Shown: piece after piece, positions 2,461 through 49,501 of the stretch
Layout of the letters: each line of letters opens with the position of its first letter
How positions within the stretch are numbered: position 1 is the stretch's first letter
Assembly: GCA_049301455.1 (NCBI GenBank)
Contig: JBAQKY010000020.1
Location: forward strand, 10,184-74,183
Length of the DNA stretch: 64,000 nt
DNA from: Microgenomates group bacterium
GTDB lineage: Bacteria; Patescibacteriota; Microgenomatia; UBA8517
Direction of reading: 5' to 3'
The notes under the pieces: model-generated
Seen by the model: only the letters and a program-made list of their open reading frames with translations
Told to the model about the DNA's origin: nothing
Databases searched by the model: none
Translations under genes and position numbers: made by a program

Positions 2461-3954
2461 ATGATCAGAAACTGGATAATTAAAAATGAAAAGACAGTGT
2501 TACGTTTTTTTGAAATCTTGCCAGGATTTTTTTCTTGGAATATGATTTTCTTACCTTATTGGGGTATATTCGTTTTTCCTAATTTTGTTGCATACTTTGT
2601 TCTACTTTTTAACGTTTATTGGTTTTATCAATCATTTTTAATTGCCATCACCTCAATTATTTCTCATACAAAAATTCAGGCAGCCATTAAATACGACTGG
2701 ATAACTGACTTAAAGACTTTTCCAGATTGGAAAAAAGTTCACAATATTGTTATTGTCCCTACGTATAAAGAACCTCTTCACATACTTGAAAGAACTATAG
2801 AATCACTTGCTAGCCAAACATTACCTACAAAGATGATGACTGTTATTTTAGCTATGGAAGAAAAAGAAGACAGAAAAGATAGAGACATGAAGTTTAATAG
2901 TTTAAAGAAAATGTTTGCTAAAAAGTTTAAATATTTTATTCAAACAAATCATAAATTAGTAGCAGGTGAAGCAGTTGGAAAAGCATCAAATGAAAAGTTT
3001 GCAGCCATTTATTTTAAAAATAATTACATTGATAAAGGATTAGTTGATATGGACTATTTAACAGTAACTAGTTGTGATGCAGATCATAAATACCACCCAA
3101 ACCACTTTGCATATCTATCATTTAAGTTTTTAGACAGTCCAACAAGATACAGGCACTTCTGGCAACCTGCTGTTATGTTTTACAACAATATTTGGGAATT
3201 ACCTGCAATCACAAGAGTCCCAAACACTTTTGGAACAATATTTAATCTTTCACAACTTCCAAGAAAAGATAGATTATTAAATACTGCTAACTATTCACTT
3301 TCGTTTAAACTACTTGACGAAGCTGGATACTGGGATGCAGACAAGATTCCAGAAGACTGGGGAATATTTTTCAAAGCATATTACAAAGTTAAAGGAGGTC
3401 TTGAAGTGGAACCAATTTACCTTCCACTTCACGCTGATGCAGCACAATCTACCTCTCACTGGAAAACAATTAAAAATCAGTATGAACAATATAAAAGATG
3501 GGCATGGGGAACATCTGATGATTCATGGATAATTAAAAATTATTTAGTAGACAGAGAAATTCCATTTTGGGATAAAACAACGAGAGTTTTGCATGTTATT
3601 TGGTCCCATTTTATGTGGCCTGTTAATTGGTTCATTGTAACAATTGGATTGACCTTGCCTACACTTATTAATCCTGCATTTGGAAGAACTGCATTGGGAT
3701 ATATGGTTCCAAAATTATCATCAATAATTTTAACTCTTTCACTTGGATTCTTCTTTGTCTTGTTCTTTGTAGATAATGTTTACAAACCAAAAAGGCCTGA
3801 TCATATATCTGTTTGGAGACAAATATTTATGCCATTTGAATTTATATTAATGCCAATTGCAGGATTTTTCTTTTCAGCTCTCCCTGGCCTTGATGCACAT
3901 ACAAGATTAATGTTGGGGAAATATATAGAATACAAGGTTACAGAAAAAGTATAA
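2461..3954 (+). CDS. processive family-2 glycosyltransferase (cellulose/chitin/hyaluronan-synthase-like), membrane-integrated
   Basis: N-terminal TM helices. TYKEP, SCDADH (DxD-like) and QYKRW (QxxRW processivity motif), then C-terminal TM helices. Confidence 0.7.
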   Translation: MIRNWIIKNEKTVLRFFEILPGFFSWNMIFLPYWGIFVFPNFVAYFVLLFNVYWFYQSFLIAITSIISHTKIQAAIKYDWITDLKTFPDWKKVHNIVIVPTYKEPLHILERTIESLASQTLPTKMMTVILAMEEKEDRKDRDMKFNSLKKMFAKKFKYFIQTNHKLVAGEAVGKASNEKFAAIYFKNNYIDKGLVDMDYLTVTSCDADHKYHPNHFAYLSFKFLDSPTRYRHFWQPAVMFYNNIWELPAITRVPNTFGTIFNLSQLPRKDRLLNTANYSLSFKLLDEAGYWDADKIPEDWGIFFKAYYKVKGGLEVEPIYLPLHADAAQSTSHWKTIKNQYEQYKRWAWGTSDDSWIIKNYLVDREIPFWDKTTRVLHVIWSHFMWPVNWFIVTIGLTLPTLINPAFGRTALGYMVPKLSSIILTLSLGFFFVLFFVDNVYKPKRPDHISVWRQIFMPFEFILMPIAGFFFSALPGLDAHTRLMLGKYIEYKVTEKV

Positions 3955-3956
3955 AG

Positions 3957-4484
3957 ATGTCAGAACAGACTAACATTGCAATTGACGTACGTAACCAAAA
4001 AAACCTAGAGAATCTGTTTCCAGGAGGTTTCAGGATAACAAGGGGACGGACATCGGGCTATGGATGTTCAGCTTTCGTATTAAATCATTTCTTTCCCAAA
4101 AGATTTTCACTTTACGATACCGATCCGGATATAAACAATACTTTCAAGGATGAAGGCAATAATCAATTTAAGGTTGTGGATGAATATGAAGTTAGCAAAG
4201 CAGAAAATGTACGCCACTCTGAACATTTCAAAAAGGACGCAGTAATTGCCTATGTTGACCTAACGCCAATTGAACTCTTTGGTAGAACCGTAGAAAACAA
4301 GACTGTGAACCATGTTGGCGTTATCGTAGAAGATCCAGAACAAGGTCTCTGTTTAGAATCAAAATTAAATCCTCAAAATTCTCCCCAAATAATAACTTTT
4401 GATCTCGGTGACATGTTGAGATATGAACAAGAAGCCGGTACCGTCACTCATATCCAAATATTAGAGGCAATTAAAAGTAAGTGA
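3957..4484 (+). CDS. hypothetical soluble protein
   Basis: 175-aa ORF, translationally coupled to upstream GT2 (stop/start 2 nt apart). No motif recognised. Confidence 0.45.
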   Translation: MSEQTNIAIDVRNQKNLENLFPGGFRITRGRTSGYGCSAFVLNHFFPKRFSLYDTDPDINNTFKDEGNNQFKVVDEYEVSKAENVRHSEHFKKDAVIAYVDLTPIELFGRTVENKTVNHVGVIVEDPEQGLCLESKLNPQNSPQIITFDLGDMLRYEQEAGTVTHIQILEAIKSK

Positions 4485-4505
4485 GTTTTATGCTAATATT
4501 AAATA

Positions 4506-5999
4506 GTGAAAAACTTCATCAAAAAATATTGGAATAAACTTATTTCTGTCATTGATACCCCAATTTGGCTTGAGATATTTTTTGTAGTAATAATTCTTCT
4601 TCGAATCCCTTCATTTTTTGAGCCATATTACTACGGTGATGAAATGATTTATTTAACACTTGGTGAAGGTGTTAGACAAGGAGTTCCACTTTATTCAGGG
4701 CTGCATGACAATAAACCACCGCTCCTCTACCTAACAGCTGCCATTTCAGGTAATGTTTTTATCTTTAAAGCATTACTTGCTGCATTTAATTTACTTGCCG
4801 TCTATCTTTTCTGGAAGCTTACAAAAATATTATTTCCAAAAAATGACAAGCTTAGTACAGTATCAACTGTTATTTTTGGAATATTTTCAACAATCCCATT
4901 ACTTGAAGGAAATATTGCAAATGCAGAAAACTTCATGATGGTTCCTGTTTTAATGGCTCTACTTTACGCATTAACACGTAAAGACAGTTTAAAGAATATG
5001 TTTTTTGTAGGTATTATGTTCTCTATTGGTTCGCTGTTTAAGATAGTTGCTGCTTTTGATATCTTAGGTTTAATTGCCTTTTGGTTAATATTTGTCAAAA
5101 AAGACAACTTTATAGAACTAATTAAAAAAGTAATATTTTTATCTCTTGGTTTTATAATACCAATCCTATTAACTTTTGTTTGGTACTTTTTAAGAGGTGC
5201 TTTGTCTGAATATGTGATTGCTGCCTATTTACAAAATTTTGGATATTTAAGCAGTTGGAAAAGATCAGCAACAGACATACCATTTTTGGTTAAAAATGCC
5301 CCACTCTTAATTCGCTTTGGAATAATGCTTTTTGGTTTCTTTGTTTTGTGGCTTTTAAGAAACAAATTGTCTAAACAATTTATCTTTGTTACTGCTTGGC
5401 TACTAGCAACACTTTTTGCAGTAACTTTATCAGAACGTCCATATCCACATTATTTTCTACAATCACTTGCTCCTGTTTCAATTCTTTTTGGGATGTTGTT
5501 TACCTTAAAAAATGTTGAACAGAGTTTAACTGTTATACCCCTTACACTTGCTTTCTTTGTACCTTTTTACTTTAAATTCTGGTATTACCAAACAGTTCCC
5601 TATTATGAAAGATTTATAAAATTTGCCACAAAACAAATAACAAGAGATGAATACTTTAATAAGTTTTCACCTCAACTGATAAACAACTATGAAATAGCAG
5701 ATTTCTTAGCAAAAACTGCCAAAAAGGAGGATCGCGTCTTCGTCTGGAGTAACGACTCATCAGCAATATATTCACTCTCAAGAAGACTGCCCCCAACTAA
5801 ATATGTTGCAGACTATCATTTCAGAGATTTCTCAACAGAAGAAATGACAATTGCAGAACTTAAAAAAACAATGCCAAAGTTTGTAGTTGTTACGCCCAAT
5901 TCATTTCCATTTGAGAGCCTTAACGTGTTTTTGGCAGAAAACTATTATATAATCTCAGAAATAGGTTCCTCACAAATATGGCTTTACTTAAACAAATAA
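4506..5999 (+). CDS. GT-C fold glycosyltransferase (ArnT/PMT-like, GT39/GT83-type polyprenyl-phosphate-sugar dependent)
   Basis: 497 aa with about 11 predicted TM helices. First extracytoplasmic loop has YYYGDEMIYLTLGEG, a DE motif typical of ArnT/PMT-type GT-C enzymes. Confidence 0.65.
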   Translation: MKNFIKKYWNKLISVIDTPIWLEIFFVVIILLRIPSFFEPYYYGDEMIYLTLGEGVRQGVPLYSGLHDNKPPLLYLTAAISGNVFIFKALLAAFNLLAVYLFWKLTKILFPKNDKLSTVSTVIFGIFSTIPLLEGNIANAENFMMVPVLMALLYALTRKDSLKNMFFVGIMFSIGSLFKIVAAFDILGLIAFWLIFVKKDNFIELIKKVIFLSLGFIIPILLTFVWYFLRGALSEYVIAAYLQNFGYLSSWKRSATDIPFLVKNAPLLIRFGIMLFGFFVLWLLRNKLSKQFIFVTAWLLATLFAVTLSERPYPHYFLQSLAPVSILFGMLFTLKNVEQSLTVIPLTLAFFVPFYFKFWYYQTVPYYERFIKFATKQITRDEYFNKFSPQLINNYEIADFLAKTAKKEDRVFVWSNDSSAIYSLSRRLPPTKYVADYHFRDFSTEEMTIAELKKTMPKFVVVTPNSFPFESLNVFLAENYYIISEIGSSQIWLYLNK

Positions 6000-6382
6000 A
6001 GAACCCACTATCAAGGTTAAAAGATGGTGTTGGGATTAAAATAGACTCCAGATTTGAAAAAATACCACTTAAATCACTTTTTTTGATATCAATTATTGTA
6101 AATATTTTGTTTATTTTGCTTGGACTAGTTAGTCAATTAGTATTACCACCTGAAGTTCCATTATTTTATGGATTGCCTAAAAATAGTGAGCAGCTTGCAC
6201 CATCTTTATTCATAATAGTACCGGCAGTAATTTCTTTATTCATAACAGTAGTAAATGCTGTAATATCTATAAACGTTGACAGTACCTACCTCAAAAAAAC
6301 TTTAGCCTTTGCATCAATATCAGTCTGTTTATTAAGCGTAATTGCCACATATAAAATTATATTTTTAGTAGGTTCTATATAA
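5978..6382 (+). CDS. small 3-4 TM membrane protein (possible GtrA-like or flippase accessory)
   Basis: 134 aa, hydrophobic, overlaps the GT-C gene end by 22 nt. Function not supported by motifs. Confidence 0.4.
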   Translation: MALLKQIKNPLSRLKDGVGIKIDSRFEKIPLKSLFLISIIVNILFILLGLVSQLVLPPEVPLFYGLPKNSEQLAPSLFIIVPAVISLFITVVNAVISINVDSTYLKKTLAFASISVCLLSVIATYKIIFLVGSI

Positions 6383-6386
6383 GAAT

Positions 6387-7415
6387 ATGGATAAATTGTT
6401 TTACTTATTGTTTCTTCCACTCTTAATCTCGGCATTTGTATCTTTTGTAATAACTCCTCTAGTTATTAAGTTTGCCAAAAGGTTAAAAATAATGGATGAT
6501 CCAAGGAAGAATAACCATCCCAAAGTAATCCACACCAAACCAATTCCTAGAGGTGGGGGTATCCCAGTATTTATTGCTATTTTAGTTACCTCACTTTTAT
6601 TCATACCAATCGACAAACATTTAATCTCAATACTTATTGGAGCAGGAATAATTTTTATAATGGGTTTTTTAGACGACAGATACAATCTAAATCCTTATGT
6701 TAGACTAATTGTTGGATTTATAGCAGCCTTTATTCCAATTTCTCAAGGTATTGGAATATCATTTCTAACAAACCCGTTTGGAGGAATAATAGATCTTTCA
6801 AACCCAATCATATCTGACATGTTTGCGTTAGTCTGGGTTGTCTTCATGATGAACATGGTAAATATGGGGGCAAAAGGAATTGATGGACAACTTTCAGGTG
6901 TCGCAGTCATATCAGCCTTAACAATTACAGCATTATCATTTTATTACTCTACAGACATAACCCAATGGCCTGTTATTCTAATTTCGTCAATTACAGCAGG
7001 CGCCTTTTTTGGTTTTTTTATCTGGCATAAGTACCCTCAAAAGATAATGCCTGGGTATGGTGGGTCAACACTTGCAGGATATATGCTGGCTATTGCCTCA
7101 ATACTGTCTACCACTAAGGTTGGTACTTTAATTGTTGTCTTAGGTATTCCGCTTATCGATACTGGATATGTAGTTATCAGAAGAGTTCTTTCTGGAAAAT
7201 CTCCTGTCTGGGGTGACAGAGGTCATCTTCACCATAAACTATTGGATTCGGGATTATCAAAAAAACAAGTCTCACAAGTCTATTGGTCACTAACTGCGAT
7301 ACTTGGAATTTTGGCTCTTAATTTGAATAGCACATATAAGTTGTATACAATTATAGGAGTATCGTTAGTTTTGGGTGGGGTAATTCTGTTCTTAACCAAA
7401 AAACAAAAAATATAA
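6387..7415 (+). CDS. polyprenyl-phosphate N-acetylhexosamine-1-phosphate transferase (GT4 MraY/WecA family)
   Basis: GFLDDRYNL, MVNMGAKGIDGQ (NxxNxxDGIDG) and 10-11 TM helices, typical of WecA/TagO/MraY. Confidence 0.8.
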   Translation: MDKLFYLLFLPLLISAFVSFVITPLVIKFAKRLKIMDDPRKNNHPKVIHTKPIPRGGGIPVFIAILVTSLLFIPIDKHLISILIGAGIIFIMGFLDDRYNLNPYVRLIVGFIAAFIPISQGIGISFLTNPFGGIIDLSNPIISDMFALVWVVFMMNMVNMGAKGIDGQLSGVAVISALTITALSFYYSTDITQWPVILISSITAGAFFGFFIWHKYPQKIMPGYGGSTLAGYMLAIASILSTTKVGTLIVVLGIPLIDTGYVVIRRVLSGKSPVWGDRGHLHHKLLDSGLSKKQVSQVYWSLTAILGILALNLNSTYKLYTIIGVSLVLGGVILFLTKKQKI

Positions 7416-8353
7416 TGTTTAATTTAATTTTAGAAGCAATCAAGATAGCAAGACTTATTCACTGGGTTAAAAACCTAGCCATCTTTGGGGCGCTTCTCTT
7501 AACTGGCACTTTGTATGAAACTGGGCTATTTAAAGACGTTTTGGAGGCCTTTTTTGCCTTCTCCTTTGCAACATCAGCAACTTACATATTTAATGACATA
7601 ATTGATGCAGCTGCAGACAGACTTCATCCTGTAAAAAAGAATAGACCAATTGCCGCAGGTAAATTACCAATGTTTATAGCCATACTTGAACTTATTGGTT
7701 TTGTTGTGCTTTCATTGGCTATGGCAGCCTACATTAATCAATTATTATTTACGCTTATCCTTGTATATCTTGGTATGCAAATTTTTTATAGTTTGGGTTT
7801 AAAAAACATACCTGTTATAGACATATTAATAATAGCTTCAGGATTTATTATCAGAGTCTATGCTGGAGCTTTTGTAATTGATGCTCATCTTTCAGTTTGG
7901 TTTTTACTTTGTGTTGTTTCTGCTTCCCTCTTCCTTGCTGCTGGAAAAAGAAGGTCAGAAATTAATCTACTTGAAGCGATATCTGGTGGAACCAGAAAAA
8001 GTTTAACTAAATATTCAACAGAACTCCTAAACAGTTATGTCACTATGTTTGGAAACGCCACATGGATGAGTTGGAGTTTATATACATTTTTTGAGAGTCC
8101 AAAAGCTTCACTTGATTTTTGGATGGTCTTGGCTGAAGTCTCAAGAGCAACAACAATTGATAAACTGATGATGCTTACCATTCCCGTAGTTATTTTTGGA
8201 ATTATGCGTTATGAGGCACTTATTTTTGAAGGTAAATCAGAAGCTCCAGAAAAATTATTATTAACTGACAAGGCTCTAATCATTGCAGTTGGCCTTTGGA
8301 TTGCACTTGTATATTGGATTATATATTCAGGAGTATCAGTGAGTGGGATTTAA
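7415..8353 (+). CDS. UbiA-family prenyl-phosphate phosphoribosyltransferase (decaprenyl-phosphate 5-phosphoribosyltransferase-like)
   Basis: NDIIDAAADRLHPVKKNRPIAAGKL matches NDxxDxxxD plus the DRxHPxKxxRPIAaG signature I recall for Rv3806c-type DPPR synthases. Polytopic. Confidence 0.65.
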   Translation: MFNLILEAIKIARLIHWVKNLAIFGALLLTGTLYETGLFKDVLEAFFAFSFATSATYIFNDIIDAAADRLHPVKKNRPIAAGKLPMFIAILELIGFVVLSLAMAAYINQLLFTLILVYLGMQIFYSLGLKNIPVIDILIIASGFIIRVYAGAFVIDAHLSVWFLLCVVSASLFLAAGKRRSEINLLEAISGGTRKSLTKYSTELLNSYVTMFGNATWMSWSLYTFFESPKASLDFWMVLAEVSRATTIDKLMMLTIPVVIFGIMRYEALIFEGKSEAPEKLLLTDKALIIAVGLWIALVYWIIYSGVSVSGI

Positions 8354-8360
8354 ACAATTA

Positions 8361-8606
8361 TTAAATTCTCATTCTTTTATTAACACCATTTGCAATTCCA
8401 CCGAGTTCATTTTCCTGAGGACGAGACACTGCTCTGAAAATATTATCAATTGAAACGGCAAGTGGATTAAATTTAATTTCAACCACTGGTTGACCAGCAT
8501 CTATACTATCTGTACCAACCGCTGAAACCCATACGCCGTCTAAACCATCGATTAGTGGCTCAATTTCATGTCGTGTTCCCCATACTGTAACGGTTTGTTT
8601 TTTCAT
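8361..8606 (-). CDS. hypothetical protein (within GC-rich foreign patch)
   Basis: 81-aa ORF in a region with visibly higher GC than its surroundings. No motif. Confidence 0.3.
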   Translation of the reverse strand: MKKQTVTVWGTRHEIEPLIDGLDGVWVSAVGTDSIDAGQPVVEIKFNPLAVSIDNIFRAVSRPQENELGGIANGVNKRMRI

Positions 8607-8692
8607 AATTTTATATTTGTAACTTTGAGGGGTATTATAGAATTGAAATCTATTTTATACCCCTCACGGTTACTATCTTGTCTTGTTATTTT

Positions 8693-8899
8693 TTAGAAAA
8701 TGATTTCCCCAATCATTACAAATCCAACAAGCGCTATCACTAAGCACATCGCTAAGCTAAAAAGGCTCAAGAGTACCGCAAAGAAACGGATCAGACCCCT
8801 TTCTTCTTCAACTCGCCTTATACCTCGCAGCGCTTGTCTTACTTCGATTATCGTTCTCAAATTGTTTACAAATTCGTCATTACCACCATCATTCGACAT
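8693..8899 (-). CDS. hypothetical small membrane protein (GC-rich patch)
   Basis: 68 aa with a C-terminal TM helix. A plus-strand ORF 8700-8951 overlaps it. Minus strand chosen because all neighbours are minus. Confidence 0.25.
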   Translation of the reverse strand: MSNDGGNDEFVNNLRTIIEVRQALRGIRRVEEERGLIRFFAVLLSLFSLAMCLVIALVGFVMIGEIIF

Positions 8900-38821: not shown

Positions 38822-38893
38822 ATCCCTACTACTAGTACTACTATTTAAAATATGATATTAATACATTAACGACATTTGTCTAAAAACATATAT

Positions 38894-40000
38894 ATGAAAT
38901 TAACCGTTCTTCAAGAAAACCTAAAAAATGCAGTTAGTCTCACATCACATTTTATTTCACTTAAAGCGCAGCTTCCAATATTATCAAATATTCTTTTAAA
39001 GACAGACAAATCAAGATTAATATTACAAGCGACAAACCTCGAAACTTCAATCTCAACTTCTATTGGGGCAAAAATCGAAACTGAAGGAGAAATCACCATT
39101 AATGGAAAAGTTTTTAATGATTTAATTTCAAATTTGTCTTCAGGTCAAATTGAATTAGAAGTAGAAAAAGAAAGTATAAAAATAACGGCAGGGACATTTA
39201 AATCAAATGTTTTAGGTTCTAATACTTCTGACTTCCCTACTCTTCCAGACAATGTCGGTAAAGATTCTTTTAAGTTGAATACAAAAGAATTTACTAATGC
39301 ATTATCTAAAACACTCTTTGCAGTATCTTCAGACGAGACCAGGCCTATTCTAACAGGTGTCTTGTTTGTTTTTAAAGGTAATACACTCTACCTTGTTTCT
39401 ACTGATGGTTTTAGGCTTACAGAAATACAATTAAAAACTAAAATTGAAATTCCAGATTTAAAAATTATAGTTCCAAAAACAATTCTAAATGAGGTTTCAA
39501 AACTTACAGACAGTGAAGATTTAGAAGTTTCTTTTGATAAAGATAATAATCAAATAATATTTAAGATTGAAGACACAATTCTATCTTCAAGAATAATTGA
39601 AGGAGAATTTCCTGAATATCAAAAAATAATACCTACTTCATCAATTTGTAATTTAACTGTAGATAAACAGGATTTAGAAAAAGCAATTAAGCTCGCTTCA
39701 GTTTTTGCAAGAGACTCAGGTAATATCGTCAGATTTACTGTCAAAGAAAATTACTTAAAAGTGAAAGCAGAAAGTTCTAACGCTGGTAATCAAGAAATGG
39801 AGATTGAAGTAAAAACAGAAGATTTAAAGCAAGAAGAGATAGAAATAATGTTTAATTTTAGATTCTTAGAAGAATTTTTAAAAATTGTAGTTTCTGATGA
39901 AGTTCAAATACAAATATCTGATAACAACAAAGCTTCAAAATTTCTAGACTCAAAAACTTCAAATTTACTTCATATAATTATGCCTATAAAAACAACTTAA
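38894..40000 (+). CDS. dnaN: DNA polymerase III beta sliding clamp
   Basis: MKLTVLQENLKNAV...: three-domain clamp (about 368 aa). The ORF-track start at 38876 (MSKNIYMKLTV) is probably 6 codons too far upstream. Confidence 0.9.
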   Translation: MKLTVLQENLKNAVSLTSHFISLKAQLPILSNILLKTDKSRLILQATNLETSISTSIGAKIETEGEITINGKVFNDLISNLSSGQIELEVEKESIKITAGTFKSNVLGSNTSDFPTLPDNVGKDSFKLNTKEFTNALSKTLFAVSSDETRPILTGVLFVFKGNTLYLVSTDGFRLTEIQLKTKIEIPDLKIIVPKTILNEVSKLTDSEDLEVSFDKDNNQIIFKIEDTILSSRIIEGEFPEYQKIIPTSSICNLTVDKQDLEKAIKLASVFARDSGNIVRFTVKENYLKVKAESSNAGNQEMEIEVKTEDLKQEEIEIMFNFRFLEEFLKIVVSDEVQIQISDNNKASKFLDSKTSNLLHIIMPIKTT

Positions 40001-43397: not shown

Positions 43398-45254
43398 TTA
43401 TTCTTGTCTATTCCACGCTTTAGTGTTTGGCATTGTTGATGCTGGATTGTCTTGTGGTTTTGTATTAATTAATTGATGTTCTGCTTCACTAGCAACAATT
43501 CTAATAGGAGCATGGTGTGGTCCTGCAAAGAATATTCCCTCCCCTACATTTGCAGCCATTAGAAGTTGTTTTTCTCCTTGTGAAAGGTAAAAGATCTCCC
43601 CTAGTTTGTCTATTGCTGTTGGTGATTGCTTCAAAAGTAGCCTTAACGCAGAGTTTGTAACAATGGCTTTACCAATATCTTGGCCAAGGAAGTCTTCGAC
43701 GTCCTGAGTGATAGTTGTTAAGCCTAGATAGTACTTTCTGGCTCTTTTTACAACAGACCAAAGGAATTGTGCAGTATCTGGATATTTCATCATTTGCCAT
43801 GCCTCTTCAACAATTAAGATTCTTCTTTTTATATCTCTTTTGACTCTGGTCCAGATATAGTCAAGAATCATAAACATGATAATTGGGCGGATTGCATCTT
43901 GAATATCTTTAACAGAAAAAACAGTAAACGGATTATTTAGATCTATGTTTGTTTGTTTATCAAAAATACCTTGGAATGAACCTCTAATAAACTTTTCAAT
44001 ACGTGAGGCAAGATCAAGTGCTTCTGGAACTTCCATACCAATTAATGTTTTATAAAGATCCTCCATTAATGGTGGTTCTTTTGTTTGTGTTACTGGGTCA
44101 TTAGTTATTCCTTTTGCTTTATAAGTCATAATTAAAGCCCTATCAAGCATAGCTTCTTGTGTTGGAGTAATTTGGCCCATTATAACTTTCATCAAAGAAT
44201 GAAGTGATAATATCTTTAGTCCTAGTTGGTTCTCACCTTCTTCTTGTATTTGTGTTAAATCGAATGGATTGATTTTTGAAGGGCTATTATAAGAGAAAGC
44301 GATGTATTGACCGCCTACAGCATCACAAAGGGCTTTATACTCTGCTTCAGGGTCTAGAATGATAACTTCTGAGCCGATCATTAACGACCTAACTGCTTCT
44401 GTTTTGACAAAATAACTTTTACCAGCACCTGAAGTAGCAAAGACTGTCATGTTTCCATTTTCCAAACTAAATCTATCAAAAATAATAAATGATTCGTTTT
44501 GTGAGTTTATGCCATACAAAATTCCTTTGTCTGAAGAAAGCTCAGCCGATGTAAATGGAAAAGTAGTAGCTACTGAGGTGGTATCCATATTTCTAGTGAT
44601 TGAAAGCCTGTCTTGCCCATATGGGGCTGTTGAAAGAAAACCCATTCGTTGATCAAGTGTTGCATTTTTAGCAACAATAAGAAGCGATCCAAGTGTTGAC
44701 ATTACCTGCCTCGAAACGTTATTAAGCTCATCAACTGTGTTTGCTGGAATAGTTATGTAAAAAGAGAACTCGTAATATCTTTCAATGCCTTTAACAAGTT
44801 GTTCTTGTAATGCCCTTGCATCTTCGAGCTTGGCGGTAGTTGATGGGTCAACAATCCTTCCTCTTTGGATATCTGTTGATAGTTCAGCCTCCATTTCGGC
44901 AATTTTGCGACGAAGATCATCAAGAACTGATTTACCAGCTACAGGATAAATATAAAAACTCATATCGAGTGAGGAGTTAAAATTAACAACAGGTTCAAGC
45001 CAACCAGGTGCAACAAAACGTGGGTAACCTGCGATAAATATTGTTCTGTAGTAAACGTTGTTAACTTTTACATAATCAAAATCAACTTCGACATGGTCAG
45101 ATGAAATCACATCGTGTAGTGTCATTTCTCCGCTTGCAACAATTAAGTTAGGATTTGTTATCTTTGGCTTTACTGATTCAGTGTATTTTGCATCCCCTGT
45201 CTCGAGTGGCTTGTTTTGGTCAGTTGCCTGTGTTGTGTTTGTATTGTTTTGCAT
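43398..45254 (-). CDS. VirB4/TrbE/CagE-family type IV secretion ATPase (ATPase domain)
   Basis: Walker A FATSGAGKSYF, Walker B plus DEAW motif (RILIVEEAWQMM), no TM, 618 aa. Confidence 0.7.
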   Translation of the reverse strand: MQNNTNTTQATDQNKPLETGDAKYTESVKPKITNPNLIVASGEMTLHDVISSDHVEVDFDYVKVNNVYYRTIFIAGYPRFVAPGWLEPVVNFNSSLDMSFYIYPVAGKSVLDDLRRKIAEMEAELSTDIQRGRIVDPSTTAKLEDARALQEQLVKGIERYYEFSFYITIPANTVDELNNVSRQVMSTLGSLLIVAKNATLDQRMGFLSTAPYGQDRLSITRNMDTTSVATTFPFTSAELSSDKGILYGINSQNESFIIFDRFSLENGNMTVFATSGAGKSYFVKTEAVRSLMIGSEVIILDPEAEYKALCDAVGGQYIAFSYNSPSKINPFDLTQIQEEGENQLGLKILSLHSLMKVIMGQITPTQEAMLDRALIMTYKAKGITNDPVTQTKEPPLMEDLYKTLIGMEVPEALDLASRIEKFIRGSFQGIFDKQTNIDLNNPFTVFSVKDIQDAIRPIIMFMILDYIWTRVKRDIKRRILIVEEAWQMMKYPDTAQFLWSVVKRARKYYLGLTTITQDVEDFLGQDIGKAIVTNSALRLLLKQSPTAIDKLGEIFYLSQGEKQLLMAANVGEGIFFAGPHHAPIRIVASEAEHQLINTKPQDNPASTMPNTKAWNRQE

Positions 45255-45266
45255 GTCTTTTTTTTG

Positions 45267-46133
45267 TTAAATATCTTTCTTAACTGCTGGTGGTTCAGGA
45301 TTATTTATCTGATAATAGAGATCAACTAGTTCACTTGTGGTTAGCTGTTTTAATTTTAAACCTAATCTACTAGCCTGTCGTATTAAATGGTCTCGTTTTG
45401 GAAACAATGTCACTTTTGCTTTTTTAACAACATAGTCTTTTGGAAATGGCAAAGGTCCTCTTTTTAGTGCTGTCATTGCTGATTTTGTTACCCCTAATTC
45501 TAAAGAGTTAAAAGGAATTACAATGAAAAATCTTTTACCCAAGACTGTTTTTTTCTTAATAGACTCTGTTATGAAATGTCTGTAGTCATCAGTTATAGCT
45601 GCAAGTTTAGGATTTGTGATTTTTTTAGATGCTTCATCAAAAAATCTTATATATCCAGAGATATCTTTTCTTTGAGTTCTGACCATGATTTGAATTGAAA
45701 AAGAAAGTGAATTAATTAGCGCGGCATATGCTGCTACTACTGCACCCTGTTCTTTTTCAGATAATAATCCAAAGTTTAAGGATGATGTTTCGAGAACAAT
45801 TGCTGCACCACCATCTTTATATAAAACCACATCATCAACAATGTCTGATATTGGTAGATGGTCTTGTGTGGTTGAAACAAGTGGCATATCAGGTGTGCCA
45901 AAATATGGTATTTTTGATACTAACTTTGCAAGGTTTTCTTTCCAGTTAGGCGATATCCCGTTGGTTTTTGGGGTGGTTGTGGTAGCATTTTCCATTTTTG
46001 GATTTTGGGTTGTTGATGTGGCTGCTTGTTCCGGCGTTACTTGAACAGAAACAGACTCTTTTTTATTTTCAACAATTGGAAGATTTGCTGGAACTGTTTG
46101 GTTGTTGTTTTGTAAATTTTGTGTATTGTCCAT
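45267..46133 (-). CDS. VirB4 N-terminal-domain-like protein (probable split N-domain of the downstream ATPase)
   Basis: 288 aa. HLPISDIVDDVVLYKDGGAAIVLETSSLNFGLLSEKEQ resembles the VirB4 N-domain opening (start of mating-pair-formation ATPases). Combined size with the next gene is about 906 aa, near full-length VirB4. Confidence 0.4.
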   Translation of the reverse strand: MDNTQNLQNNNQTVPANLPIVENKKESVSVQVTPEQAATSTTQNPKMENATTTTPKTNGISPNWKENLAKLVSKIPYFGTPDMPLVSTTQDHLPISDIVDDVVLYKDGGAAIVLETSSLNFGLLSEKEQGAVVAAYAALINSLSFSIQIMVRTQRKDISGYIRFFDEASKKITNPKLAAITDDYRHFITESIKKKTVLGKRFFIVIPFNSLELGVTKSAMTALKRGPLPFPKDYVVKKAKVTLFPKRDHLIRQASRLGLKLKQLTTSELVDLYYQINNPEPPAVKKDI

Positions 46134-47311: not shown

Positions 47312-49501
47312 ATGGCAGAAGGTAGACCTGGTGTCGATGGCAAAAGTATAAATACTGATGTTGCAAGTTTTACTCCAAGAGATGGCGTGATTTCTGTTGG
47401 GGCTAAAGACGCTGTAACAGGAGCTCCAGTACAAGCTGAAGCTCTTTCTTCTGGTGATTCAGATAGATTCAGGAAGCTTTCTGAAACAAAGGAAGTAAAA
47501 TCAAAAAGCAACCCTGAAAACCCAAACGCGACCAAGAAAAATGGAGAGTATAAACAAACCAACAATAAACCTGAAACTAAACATACTCAAAAAGAGGCTC
47601 CTATGAAAAGCGAATATTCTAGTGATAATAATAGTAAAGTTGATGAAAAGAAAGAGAAAGGTGTTAAATCAGAAGAAGACTTTGGGTCTATGGATTTTTC
47701 TGAACTCAATAGTTTACGAAGGAATTTTACGATAGAGGGGACGAGGAGACAAAACGCTGAAGACGAGTTTAACCGGAGGGTCAAAAATTTTACAAATTTG
47801 AGAGAAGGCGAAATTGTTGGAGAGATAAGACATACATATTTAAATTTAGTAAGAAATACCAATTGGGATGGTTTGTTTGGAGCAATCACTACTGCCGCAA
47901 CAGAGCTTGAATCCTCTTTTGCTAGATCAGTAGAAGGGCAAAAACACCCCGAACTTAGAGGGGTGATTACAGAAGTGCTTCGAGTAGAAAGGGCACAGCT
48001 TTTACTAGAAGGAATGAGAAGGCGCGGTATTAGAGATACTAACACTCAATGGTTAACAACGCATGGGTATACGCCAACTGAAATATCTAGATTTAGAGAG
48101 CTATCACTTCCTATTAATGCGGTATTGGACCTTGAAAGAACTCCTATTAATACTTTGGCAAATATGGTTGGACAAGACCTTGTTGTTAATGTACCTCAGC
48201 CATCATCCCTTTCTGCTGCAGAGATGGAAAATGCTGTTCAAAGAGGAACGGAAAAAGCAATAAATGCCCCAAGCATAGAAGCAGAAAGACAAGCTTTTAG
48301 AACAGCTGAGTATCAGATGGTAAGTGTTCCTCCTGTAGATTCTAGAACTAAATTTTTACTAACTGCAGAAAATCGTGAAATATTGATTTGGGACGCTAGG
48401 GCAAAACTCTCAAGAGCCTGTGCAATTAAAATGTCTGGAGGAATGAATGAAATTGCAAACAACCCTGAAGCTAAGACATTTACAAACGAGCAAGAGCAAT
48501 TGTTACTGTCAGTCCCAGGAGTACTGGAAGCGATCTCTTTAGAGGCATATCTAATAGTTAATGGTGCTGAGATGAACGCTGCCCTTAAGAACAATGGACC
48601 GGAATTACCAGAAACGATATTTGATATTACAGAAGAAGGAGCTCTTTCTAGGATGAGGCAAGCTAAGGTCGATTGGTTGATGACATATAGAAATTTAAAT
48701 GAAGACCAAGCAAAAGATGCTGAAGCAATATCGAGGAATTTTGTTTATTTAAACGATTTAGTTGAAGACTTTGATTCTAAGGCTGATAAAAACGATAAAC
48801 GGACAAAAGAAGATCATAAATATATTCCGAACTCGATGCCAAAATTAAAATCGGTAGCAGTTCATCAGACAATGCATTTACAAGAGAGACTTGAAGCAAA
48901 AAACAAAGGTGATTCAAACTGGTCTGCGTTAGGAGCATACGCAAACAGCCACCCAAAACAAATAGAAGGTCTATTGCCTCTTAATTTATTTAAAAGCGCG
49001 TTGGAAATTGGTAGAGATCAAAATTCAATAGATCATACTAGAAAGATTGGACCTCCTGACAATGAAGGAGTATCACTACTTGAAGTGTTTGTAGGAAATG
49101 GGGTTAAACTAGCCGTTGATCCTAGGAATATTAATTTAGTGATGCCTGCGATCTCACATCCAAATGCTAGAGAAGGTAGGCTTAGTGGTTATTGCGCAGT
49201 AACTTTAAGTGCTGCTGCAACTGTTTTAGGCTCACTTAGTAAGCCTAACGAAATTGTTAATTCTAAAAACTGGGCTCCGTTGGGGGATGCATTTAGAGAT
49301 TTAGATGTTGATCCGAAATATAGGCAGAACATTGCAATTGCAATTGTCGGGGTTAACACCTCTCCGTTTGCACTTGGTTTTGGACCCGCAATAGGTTGGG
49401 GTAAGTGGTGGGAATATAGAAGAAAAGAAATTGAAAGATCTGACCCCAACTTTTTCAGTTGGTCTTGGGGAAAGGCATTCCGCAAGATATTTGGGAAATA
49501 A
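47312..49501 (+). CDS. hypothetical soluble 729-aa protein, compositionally distinct (higher GC, Arg/Ala/Glu-rich), no TM or signal peptide
   Basis: The only plus-strand gene inside the minus-strand T4SS-like block; divergent from the PrgI-like gene. No ATPase or relaxase motifs found. Confidence 0.5.
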   Translation: MAEGRPGVDGKSINTDVASFTPRDGVISVGAKDAVTGAPVQAEALSSGDSDRFRKLSETKEVKSKSNPENPNATKKNGEYKQTNNKPETKHTQKEAPMKSEYSSDNNSKVDEKKEKGVKSEEDFGSMDFSELNSLRRNFTIEGTRRQNAEDEFNRRVKNFTNLREGEIVGEIRHTYLNLVRNTNWDGLFGAITTAATELESSFARSVEGQKHPELRGVITEVLRVERAQLLLEGMRRRGIRDTNTQWLTTHGYTPTEISRFRELSLPINAVLDLERTPINTLANMVGQDLVVNVPQPSSLSAAEMENAVQRGTEKAINAPSIEAERQAFRTAEYQMVSVPPVDSRTKFLLTAENREILIWDARAKLSRACAIKMSGGMNEIANNPEAKTFTNEQEQLLLSVPGVLEAISLEAYLIVNGAEMNAALKNNGPELPETIFDITEEGALSRMRQAKVDWLMTYRNLNEDQAKDAEAISRNFVYLNDLVEDFDSKADKNDKRTKEDHKYIPNSMPKLKSVAVHQTMHLQERLEAKNKGDSNWSALGAYANSHPKQIEGLLPLNLFKSALEIGRDQNSIDHTRKIGPPDNEGVSLLEVFVGNGVKLAVDPRNINLVMPAISHPNAREGRLSGYCAVTLSAAATVLGSLSKPNEIVNSKNWAPLGDAFRDLDVDPKYRQNIAIAIVGVNTSPFALGFGPAIGWGKWWEYRRKEIERSDPNFFSWSWGKAFRKIFGK

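Follow-up and report, generated by a model that had tools for sequence, protein, structure and literature searches.

Results

Two adjacent genes with homology to VirB4

The subject of this work is a pair of adjacent genes in a 64,000-nt stretch of DNA from a Microgenomates group bacterium (contig JBAQKY010000020.1 of assembly GCA_049301455.1, positions 10,184 to 74,183), hereafter called the window. The genes encode a TrsD-like protein of 288 aa and a short VirB4 ATPase of 618 aa, and they lie in an apparent type IV secretion system (T4SS) operon in which the order is PrgI/VirB3-like protein, TrsD-like protein, VirB4, a 904-aa membrane protein and a 194-aa protein. A preliminary description of the window, made from its letters and open reading frames (ORFs), had suggested that one VirB4 is here divided into an N-terminal-domain gene and an ATPase gene, and had placed both ORFs correctly (Table 1).

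By its sequence matches, the 618-aa protein is unambiguously a VirB4-type ATPase. It scored above the cut-off of NF045971, the CD1110-family VirB4 (367.1 vs 325 bits, E = 1.8e-109), matched the Pfam families P-loop_TraG, AAA_10 and DUF87, and aligned with PDB 4AG5, the crystal structure of the Thermoanaerobacter VirB4 C-terminal domain (E = 1.5e-46). Its homologues numbered ~8,000 or more; the best 120 were 575–695 aa long and 77–100% identical to it, and came from Patescibacteria, Woesebacteria or Microgenomates wherever a source was named. Two Patescibacteria homologues, P0257 (1429 aa) and P0333 (1191 aa), contain inteins and LAGLIDADG homing endonucleases according to precomputed annotation (PF14528, PF14890).

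The protein begins with a low-complexity segment predicted to be disordered (residues 1–40), followed by the latter half of the N-terminal domain of VirB4 (residues 45–260) and a RecA-like ATPase domain (residues 264–596). Walker A (ATSGAGKSY, residues 273–281) and Walker B (RILIVEEAW, residues 478–486) are both present, as the preliminary description had it; the DEAW signature that it also listed in fact reads EEAW, with Glu where Asp is usual. Relatives in which this motif was found carry DEAW in 63 of 78 cases and EEAW in the other 15. The 618-aa protein covers only positions 183–734 of the 752 in NF045971, and the ~180 N-terminal positions of the model are not in the same polypeptide.

The 288-aa protein is encoded directly upstream. 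Its low-complexity start, already pointed out from the sequence, spans residues 1–85 and is predicted to be disordered, and a folded alpha/beta domain occupies residues ~88–281. No transmembrane segment was found in it, and the products of both genes are predicted to be soluble. The stretch that had been called VirB4-N-like (PISDIVDD...SEKEQ, residues 94–129) lies in the folded domain, and the assignment was borne out by a match to NCBIfam NF045975 (VirB4_plasma; E = 2.7e-6) and by the Carboxydocella alignment described below. A weak match to NF045971 covered positions 3–114 of 752, and the TrsD/TraD family NF041427, which by name takes in TraD of pIP501-type systems too, was matched at 23 bits (E = 6e-5, model positions 14–95 of 201). 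On these profile scores, the 288-aa protein is a distant relative of the staphylococcal TrsD prototype, not an equivalog. PF26593.2 is listed in the precomputed annotation of P0001, a protein 100% identical to it, and of nearly all its homologues; a literature search for PF26593 found nothing. No match to PDB sequences was found by phmmer. Searching plasmids with tblastn identified the N-termini of single-chain VirB4s from Carboxydocella (754 aa), Brevibacillus (TraC, 810 aa) and Rubrobacter (1344 aa).

Homologues of the 288-aa protein numbered 2,552 at E ≤ 1e-3, one of which, from a Microgenomates metagenome-assembled genome (MAG), was 100% identical; the best 120 were all stand-alone proteins of 206–349 aa from Patescibacteria. 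Residues 86–288 also served as query in an exhaustive HMMER search across 1.84 billion representatives, which identified 1,738 relatives at E ≤ 1e-3. Among the best 150 of these the domain was always N-terminal, and the sole fused VirB4 was P0383 (787 aa). In the TrsD-like proteins P0490 (715 aa), P0477 (705 aa), P0432 (597 aa) and P0366 (398 aa), the domain lies at residues ~8–206. Many TrsD-like proteins of other Patescibacteria have low-complexity tails of 200–500 residues after the domain, rich in Q, P, T, S and N and with no Pfam domain. The low-complexity region of the 288-aa protein in the window is N-terminal, unlike these C-terminal tails of other lineages.

The two proteins align to complementary parts of VirB4

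When aligned to the same references, the two proteins occupied neighboring, non-redundant parts. On the 894 positions of NF045975, the 288-aa protein matched 103–279 and the 618-aa protein 292–893. In BLASTP against the 754-aa Carboxydocella VirB4, residues 86–277 of the 288-aa protein corresponded to residues 8–175 (E = 2e-14) and residues 45–600 of the 618-aa protein to residues 183–744 (E = 2e-85); the two matches did not overlap and left a 7-residue gap between them. The complementary pattern was repeated against Brevibacillus TraC and the Rubrobacter protein. Likewise, NF045971 was covered by the pair together and by neither gene alone, so that the 618-aa protein by itself had no full-length alignment to VirB4, and the similarity of the 288-aa protein was to VirB4 N-termini.

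Because the Carboxydocella matches do not overlap, they indicate fission and not duplication. The 288-aa protein was also considered as a paralogous duplicate of a domain kept in the 618-aa protein, and this was rejected on the complementary alignments to single-chain VirB4s. When the 288-aa family profile was compared with the 618-aa protein, it found nothing in residues 1–265.

These alignments also place the break point: by sequence comparison, the detached part is no more than the first subdomain of the N-terminal domain, ~180 residues long. The preliminary description was right that the 618-aa protein is truncated and too generous in putting the missing part at 250–300 aa, since residues 45–260 retain the second half of the domain. 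Its remark that the summed length is typical of VirB4 holds for the folded parts. These come to ~750 residues, as in a CD1110-type VirB4, once the ~85 and ~40 N-terminal residues of the two proteins that are low-complexity and predicted to be disordered are set aside.

Table 1 Features of the virB4 locus and its surroundings in the window
Feature	Position (nt)	Strand	Evidence or remark
PrgI/VirB3-like membrane protein, 349 aa	46161–47210	−	operon gene 1; Pfam, synteny
TrsD-like protein, 288 aa	45267–46133	−	aligns to the first subdomain of the VirB4 N-terminal domain, detached
Folded domain of the 288-aa protein	45291–45872	−	residues ~88–281
Intergenic spacer, 12 nt, A-rich, CAAAAAAAAGAC	45255–45266	−	sequence reading
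Short VirB4 ATPase, 618 aa	43398–45254	−	NF045971, Pfam, PDB 4AG5, BLASTP
Walker A of the 618-aa protein	44412–44438	−	ATSGAGKSY
Walker B of the 618-aa protein	43797–43823	−	RILIVEEAW
Polytopic membrane protein, 904 aa	40680–43394	−	3 nt downstream of virB4; transmembrane and motif scan
194-aa protein, one N-terminal transmembrane segment	40083–40667	−	last gene of the apparent operon
dnaA	37341–38711	+	Pfam Bac_DnaA, Bac_DnaA_C
dnaN	38876–40000	+	Pfam DNA_pol3_beta

The split is conserved and its junctions vary among relatives

The two ORFs share a reading frame and are separated by one TAA (45267–45269) and a spacer with a run of eight A residues (A8); this spacer had been counted as 13 nt and is 12 nt long. 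Such a junction bears on two alternatives to a genuine gene split. One, which the preliminary description had itself raised as a frameshift or pseudogene junction, is that the two ORFs derive from one intact virB4 that a frameshift, a nonsense mutation or a sequencing error has interrupted in this genome, for which in-frame ORFs, a single stop and an A8 run, a typical site of sequencing error, would be fitting signs. The other is programmed stop-codon readthrough, in which the TAA would occasionally be read, giving separate subunits together with a fused VirB4 of ~910 aa; the shared frame, single stop and short A-rich spacer suit it equally. Fused versions, described in the next section, exist in a few relatives, which favors a broken gene, and their viability there also speaks for readthrough.

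We compared the junction across 80 species-level loci of Woesebacteria/Microgenomates. The pair was adjacent and co-oriented in all 80, in the order PrgI/VirB3-like gene, N-terminal piece, VirB4, and the PrgI-like gene lay directly upstream of the pair in 79. It was split into two ORFs in 78 of the 80, with spacers, overlaps and frames that differed from species to species. The frame relation was +2 in 42 loci, +1 in 27 and 0 in 11. An ATGA stop/start overlap was the commonest junction (29 of 80), and each of the three stop codons was in use. Judged from sequence, such varied junctions fit two translationally coupled genes.

A recent lesion is excluded because the junctions vary between species. 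Further evidence against a pseudogene or an assembly artefact comes from the two ends of the junction and from selection. The stop of the 288-aa ORF follows a C-terminal motif, NNPEPPAVKKDI, that is conserved up to the stop in closer relatives (8 of 12 aligned sequences), and the 618-aa ORF begins with its own ATG, as in relatives. The ratio of nonsynonymous to synonymous substitution rates (dN/dS) of the 288-aa gene against relatives was 0.05–0.08, with dS saturated, and the gene is under strong purifying selection. In addition, the NCBI record of the MAG deposits identical proteins as two separate genes. A broken virB4 is therefore an extremely improbable account of the locus, and a pseudogene flag on the pair would be wrong.

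Readthrough is also very unlikely. The in-frame single stop in the window is a coincidence and not a readthrough device, because relatives do not share the frame relation: only 11 of the 80 are in frame, fewer than the third that chance alone would give, and these include two true fusions, while the out-of-frame ATGA overlap occurs in 29. Moreover, TAA is the least leaky of the stop codons. No conserved context or structure downstream of the stop was noticed, although no search was aimed at one.

Taken together, the complementary alignments, the purifying selection, the adjacency in all 80 loci and the many different junctions uphold the suggestion of a genuine domain split. We conclude with high confidence that the locus encodes a genuine, conserved VirB4 in two genes, which belongs to a chromosomal, origin-proximal T4SS of a Microgenomates/Woesebacteria (Patescibacteria) bacterium. 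Homology, complementarity, collinearity, conservation, selection and the occurrence of natural fusions were each demonstrated in this analysis.

Natural fusions and structure models

Single-ORF fusions of the two parts were found in two of the 80 loci, L021 (861 aa, nt 2628–5210 of that locus) and L070 (915 aa, nt 5959–8703). A search with the L070 protein identified ~28 fused clusters of 783–897 aa among many split forms, and many of these clusters are annotated with PF26593 in the N-terminal part together with PF19044. In L021, L070 and the fused proteins of the database (P0241–P0268, P0271 and P0383), a disordered linker joins the TrsD-like domain to VirB4. Fusions were seen in a minority of Woesebacteria and of other Patescibacteria and measured 783–915 aa. 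Fusion is thus tolerated but rare in this clade, and the fused forms are probably secondary re-fusions.

We modeled the 288-aa protein with AlphaFold2 from an alignment of 34 sequences. The model (mean predicted local distance difference test score, pLDDT, 70) had a disordered region at residues 1–90 and an alpha/beta fold at residues 90–280. In a Foldseek search of this model against the PDB, the top 11 hits were all TrwK/VirB4 of R388, with probabilities of 0.9–0.99 and E values of ~0.01–0.05. The AlphaFold2 model of a natural fusion, P0252 (860 aa; pLDDT 72, predicted template modeling score 0.64), superposed globally on full-length TrwK (8rtd_O) with E = 1e-27, 866 aligned columns and template modeling scores of 0.64 and 0.69.

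Several points weigh against the two-gene reading. The 288-aa protein scores far below the curated cut-off of NF041427 (23 vs 200 bits), and our local Pfam scan, whose copy of the database presumably did not include PF26593, gave no family for it. A profile comparison with TrwK of R388 by hhalign, meant to map the split point, aligned the ATPase domain only, and because of this the equivalence of the N-terminal part with that of Gram-negative VirB4 rests on predicted structure. With pLDDT values of ~70–72 and a Foldseek E value of ~0.01 for the isolated domain, we hold that equivalence with moderate confidence. The substitution of Glu for Asp in Walker B is a further point, though the residue is probably tolerated, as judged from its occurrence in 15 of 78 relatives.

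The detached subdomain might alternatively have become an independent accessory factor: a VirB4-derived protein that now serves as a regulator, an assembly chaperone or an adaptor acting through its disordered tail. The disordered tails of relatives are very variable, reach ~500 residues and are rich in Q, P, T and S, and TrsD homologues of Gracilibacteria are reported not to be adjacent to virB4 (PMC12102498), both of which favor such a role. Nevertheless, the small protein is required for a complete VirB4 fold, since nothing in the 618-aa protein corresponds to this subdomain; the two genes are neighbors in every one of the 80 loci; and there are repeated natural fusions, whose model resembles a normal VirB4. 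We regard an independent accessory role as unlikely, and it would in any case be compatible with a two-gene VirB4.

Gene neighborhood of the virB4 pair

The apparent operon extends from 47210 to 40083 with intergenic gaps of 27, 12, 3 and 12 nt. A promoter and terminator scan of the operon, internal junctions included, gave no signal above the shuffled background. Its last gene lies 83 nt from the end of dnaN, and rnpA and yidC are found further upstream of dnaA and dnaN; this replication-origin context directly adjoins the secretion operon.

The 349-aa product of the first gene matched Pfam PrgI (PF12666) over residues 5–84 and profile positions 1–82 of 91 (E = 9.7e-6), at 26.5 bits, just under the gathering threshold of 27 bits. 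The PrgI assignment is supported because of the position of the gene and its synteny in 79 of the 80 related loci. The protein has one strong hydrophobic segment (residues 47–65). It is unusually long for a PrgI/VirB3-like protein: a Pro/Thr/Gln-rich linker follows the PrgI part, and the C-terminal region matches Pfam CarboxypepD_reg (residues 266–326), a carboxypeptidase-regulatory-like beta-sandwich of the prealbumin type. A beta-sandwich on a VirB3-type protein suggests an extracellular appendage.

The 904-aa protein has at least four transmembrane segments (residues 495–575), a charged, coiled-coil-like N-terminal region and, in its C-terminal region, a zincin-like HELTH motif at residue 817; neither Pfam nor NCBIfam gave a match for the protein. 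Its gene is present downstream of virB4 in 60 of the 80 related loci. It is possibly a divergent VirB6-like or cell-wall-acting component; VirB6 homologues were found to be scarce in Microgenomatia in a 2025 survey (PMC12102498). The 194-aa protein, with a transmembrane segment at residues 13–31 and no Pfam match, occurs in 27 of the 80 loci, on the same strand in 26.

No relaxase or type IV coupling protein domain was found among the 25 ORFs given domain scans, a subset of the ORFs of the window. The other large ORFs scanned that matched Pfam are housekeeping genes, and several more match no family. Divergent from the T4SS operon is a 729-aa ORF (47312–49501, plus strand) with a Lys/Glu/Ser-rich N-terminal region and no Pfam or NCBIfam match. 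Further large ORFs with no Pfam family (462–888 aa) lie at 57297–58685 (plus), 58706–61372 (minus), 2461–3954 (plus) and 4506–5999 (plus); the last two are both 497 aa, an equal length, and may be paralogues.

Comparison with known systems

The arrangement of TrsD next to VirB4 is already known: it has been described in print both in Patescibacteria and in pGO1-type plasmids, and the curated families NF041427 and PF26593 exist. Quinonero-Coronel et al. (2025, Microb Genom) surveyed the T4SSs of Patescibacteria and found TrsD to be the most abundant component retrieved, with 2,272 homologues, 1,664 of them adjoining virB4; PrgI/VirB3 homologues accompany TrsD, relaxases are mostly absent, and the cluster lies near dnaA, dnaN and rnpA in Microgenomatia and Paceibacteria (PMC12102498). 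Guglielmini et al. (2014), cited in that survey for the homology of TrsD and VirB4, do not name TrsD in their main text. The window agrees with the survey in phylum, component set, TrsD beside virB4 and location at dnaA/dnaN/rnpA, and likewise shows neither a relaxase nor a coupling protein nearby among the ORFs scanned. Many Patescibacteria VirB4s are 77–95% identical to that of the window, and both proteins of the pair have 100% identical counterparts in a Microgenomates MAG. Nothing differs materially; where VirB6 might be expected, the window has the 904-aa polytopic membrane protein.

A second known system, the staphylococcal conjugative plasmid pSK41 (pGO1/pSK41 type), has the same gene order as the window: TrsC (VirB3-like), TrsD (227 aa) and TrsE (a short VirB4 of 672 aa), with a 14-nt spacer. 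It also has the same break point, as TrsE residues 37–636 correspond to Brevibacillus TraC 204–789 and TrsD residues 45–108 to Carboxydocella VirB4 22–84. TrsD of pSK41 and the 288-aa protein are only weakly related, with no pairwise BLASTP match. Moreover, pSK41 encodes a relaxase and a VirD4-like coupling protein, whereas the system of the window lies on the chromosome, and the ORFs scanned near it include neither. In pBMB64 of Bacillus thuringiensis, PrgI is followed by a 227-aa protein and then by a 630-aa DUF87 protein, and the split arrangement also occurs in a Pontibacillus plasmid, in Clostridioides pESW1602 and in a Miltoncostaea (Actinomycetota) plasmid; gene order and break point are shared by all of these. 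The preliminary description had called a split VirB4 rare; on the contrary, it is the norm in Patescibacteria and extends to pSK41/pGO1-type, Bacillus, Clostridioides and actinobacterial plasmids.

Single-chain VirB4s, namely the CD1110 family (NF045971) of Firmicutes elements and TrwK/VirB4 of R388 (PDB 7O41, 8RTD), have the same domains in the same order as the pair in the window. They differ in that the window encodes the first ~180-residue subdomain separately, with low-complexity tails flanking the break. The VirB3–VirB4 fusions of some conjugative systems show that the VirB3/VirB4 N-terminal module is plastic in how it is divided into genes (PMC12102498). They go in the opposite direction, fusion and not fission, and there is none at the window and none in the Patescibacteria dataset of that survey.

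Discussion

We propose, as the most likely mechanism, that the 288-aa and 618-aa polypeptides associate non-covalently and so restore the whole N-terminal domain of a VirB4. In R388, VirB3 wraps the N-terminal domain of VirB4 (TrwK, residues 15–400), and VirB4 dimerizes through that domain (PMC9259494). The rebuilt domain would be the counterpart of this R388 domain, and the assembled VirB4 would dock on the PrgI/VirB3-like membrane protein and energize a monoderm-type T4SS.

The fission may also have a function of its own and not be neutral. The free subdomain, with its variable disordered tails, could act as a detachable adaptor, produced or recruited on its own, that selects the VirB4 protomers that dock onto PrgI/VirB3. 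We consider this idea unlikely as matters stand; if true, machine assembly in Patescibacteria and pGO1-type systems would include a regulated or sub-stoichiometric step that is absent from single-chain VirB4 machines.

The published survey of Patescibacteria T4SSs does not spell out the exact portion missing from the adjacent VirB4, nor the occasional fusions (PMC12102498). To that account our analysis adds that the neighboring VirB4 lacks exactly the portion that TrsD supplies, which amounts to a clean fission; that one break point is common to at least three lineages; and that Woesebacteria include occasional fusions, probably secondary ones. In annotation, "hypothetical protein" (288 aa) can give way to TrsD-like VirB4 N-terminal subdomain protein, and "ATP-binding protein" (618 aa) to VirB4.

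An essential T4SS has been described in Southlakia epibionticum (SEML1_0006–0019; Wang et al. 2023, Cell; PMC10633639), and the TrsD homologue of that organism is essential (PMC12102498). The T4SS that is essential in Southlakia probably needs both polypeptides to form a single VirB4 N-terminal domain.

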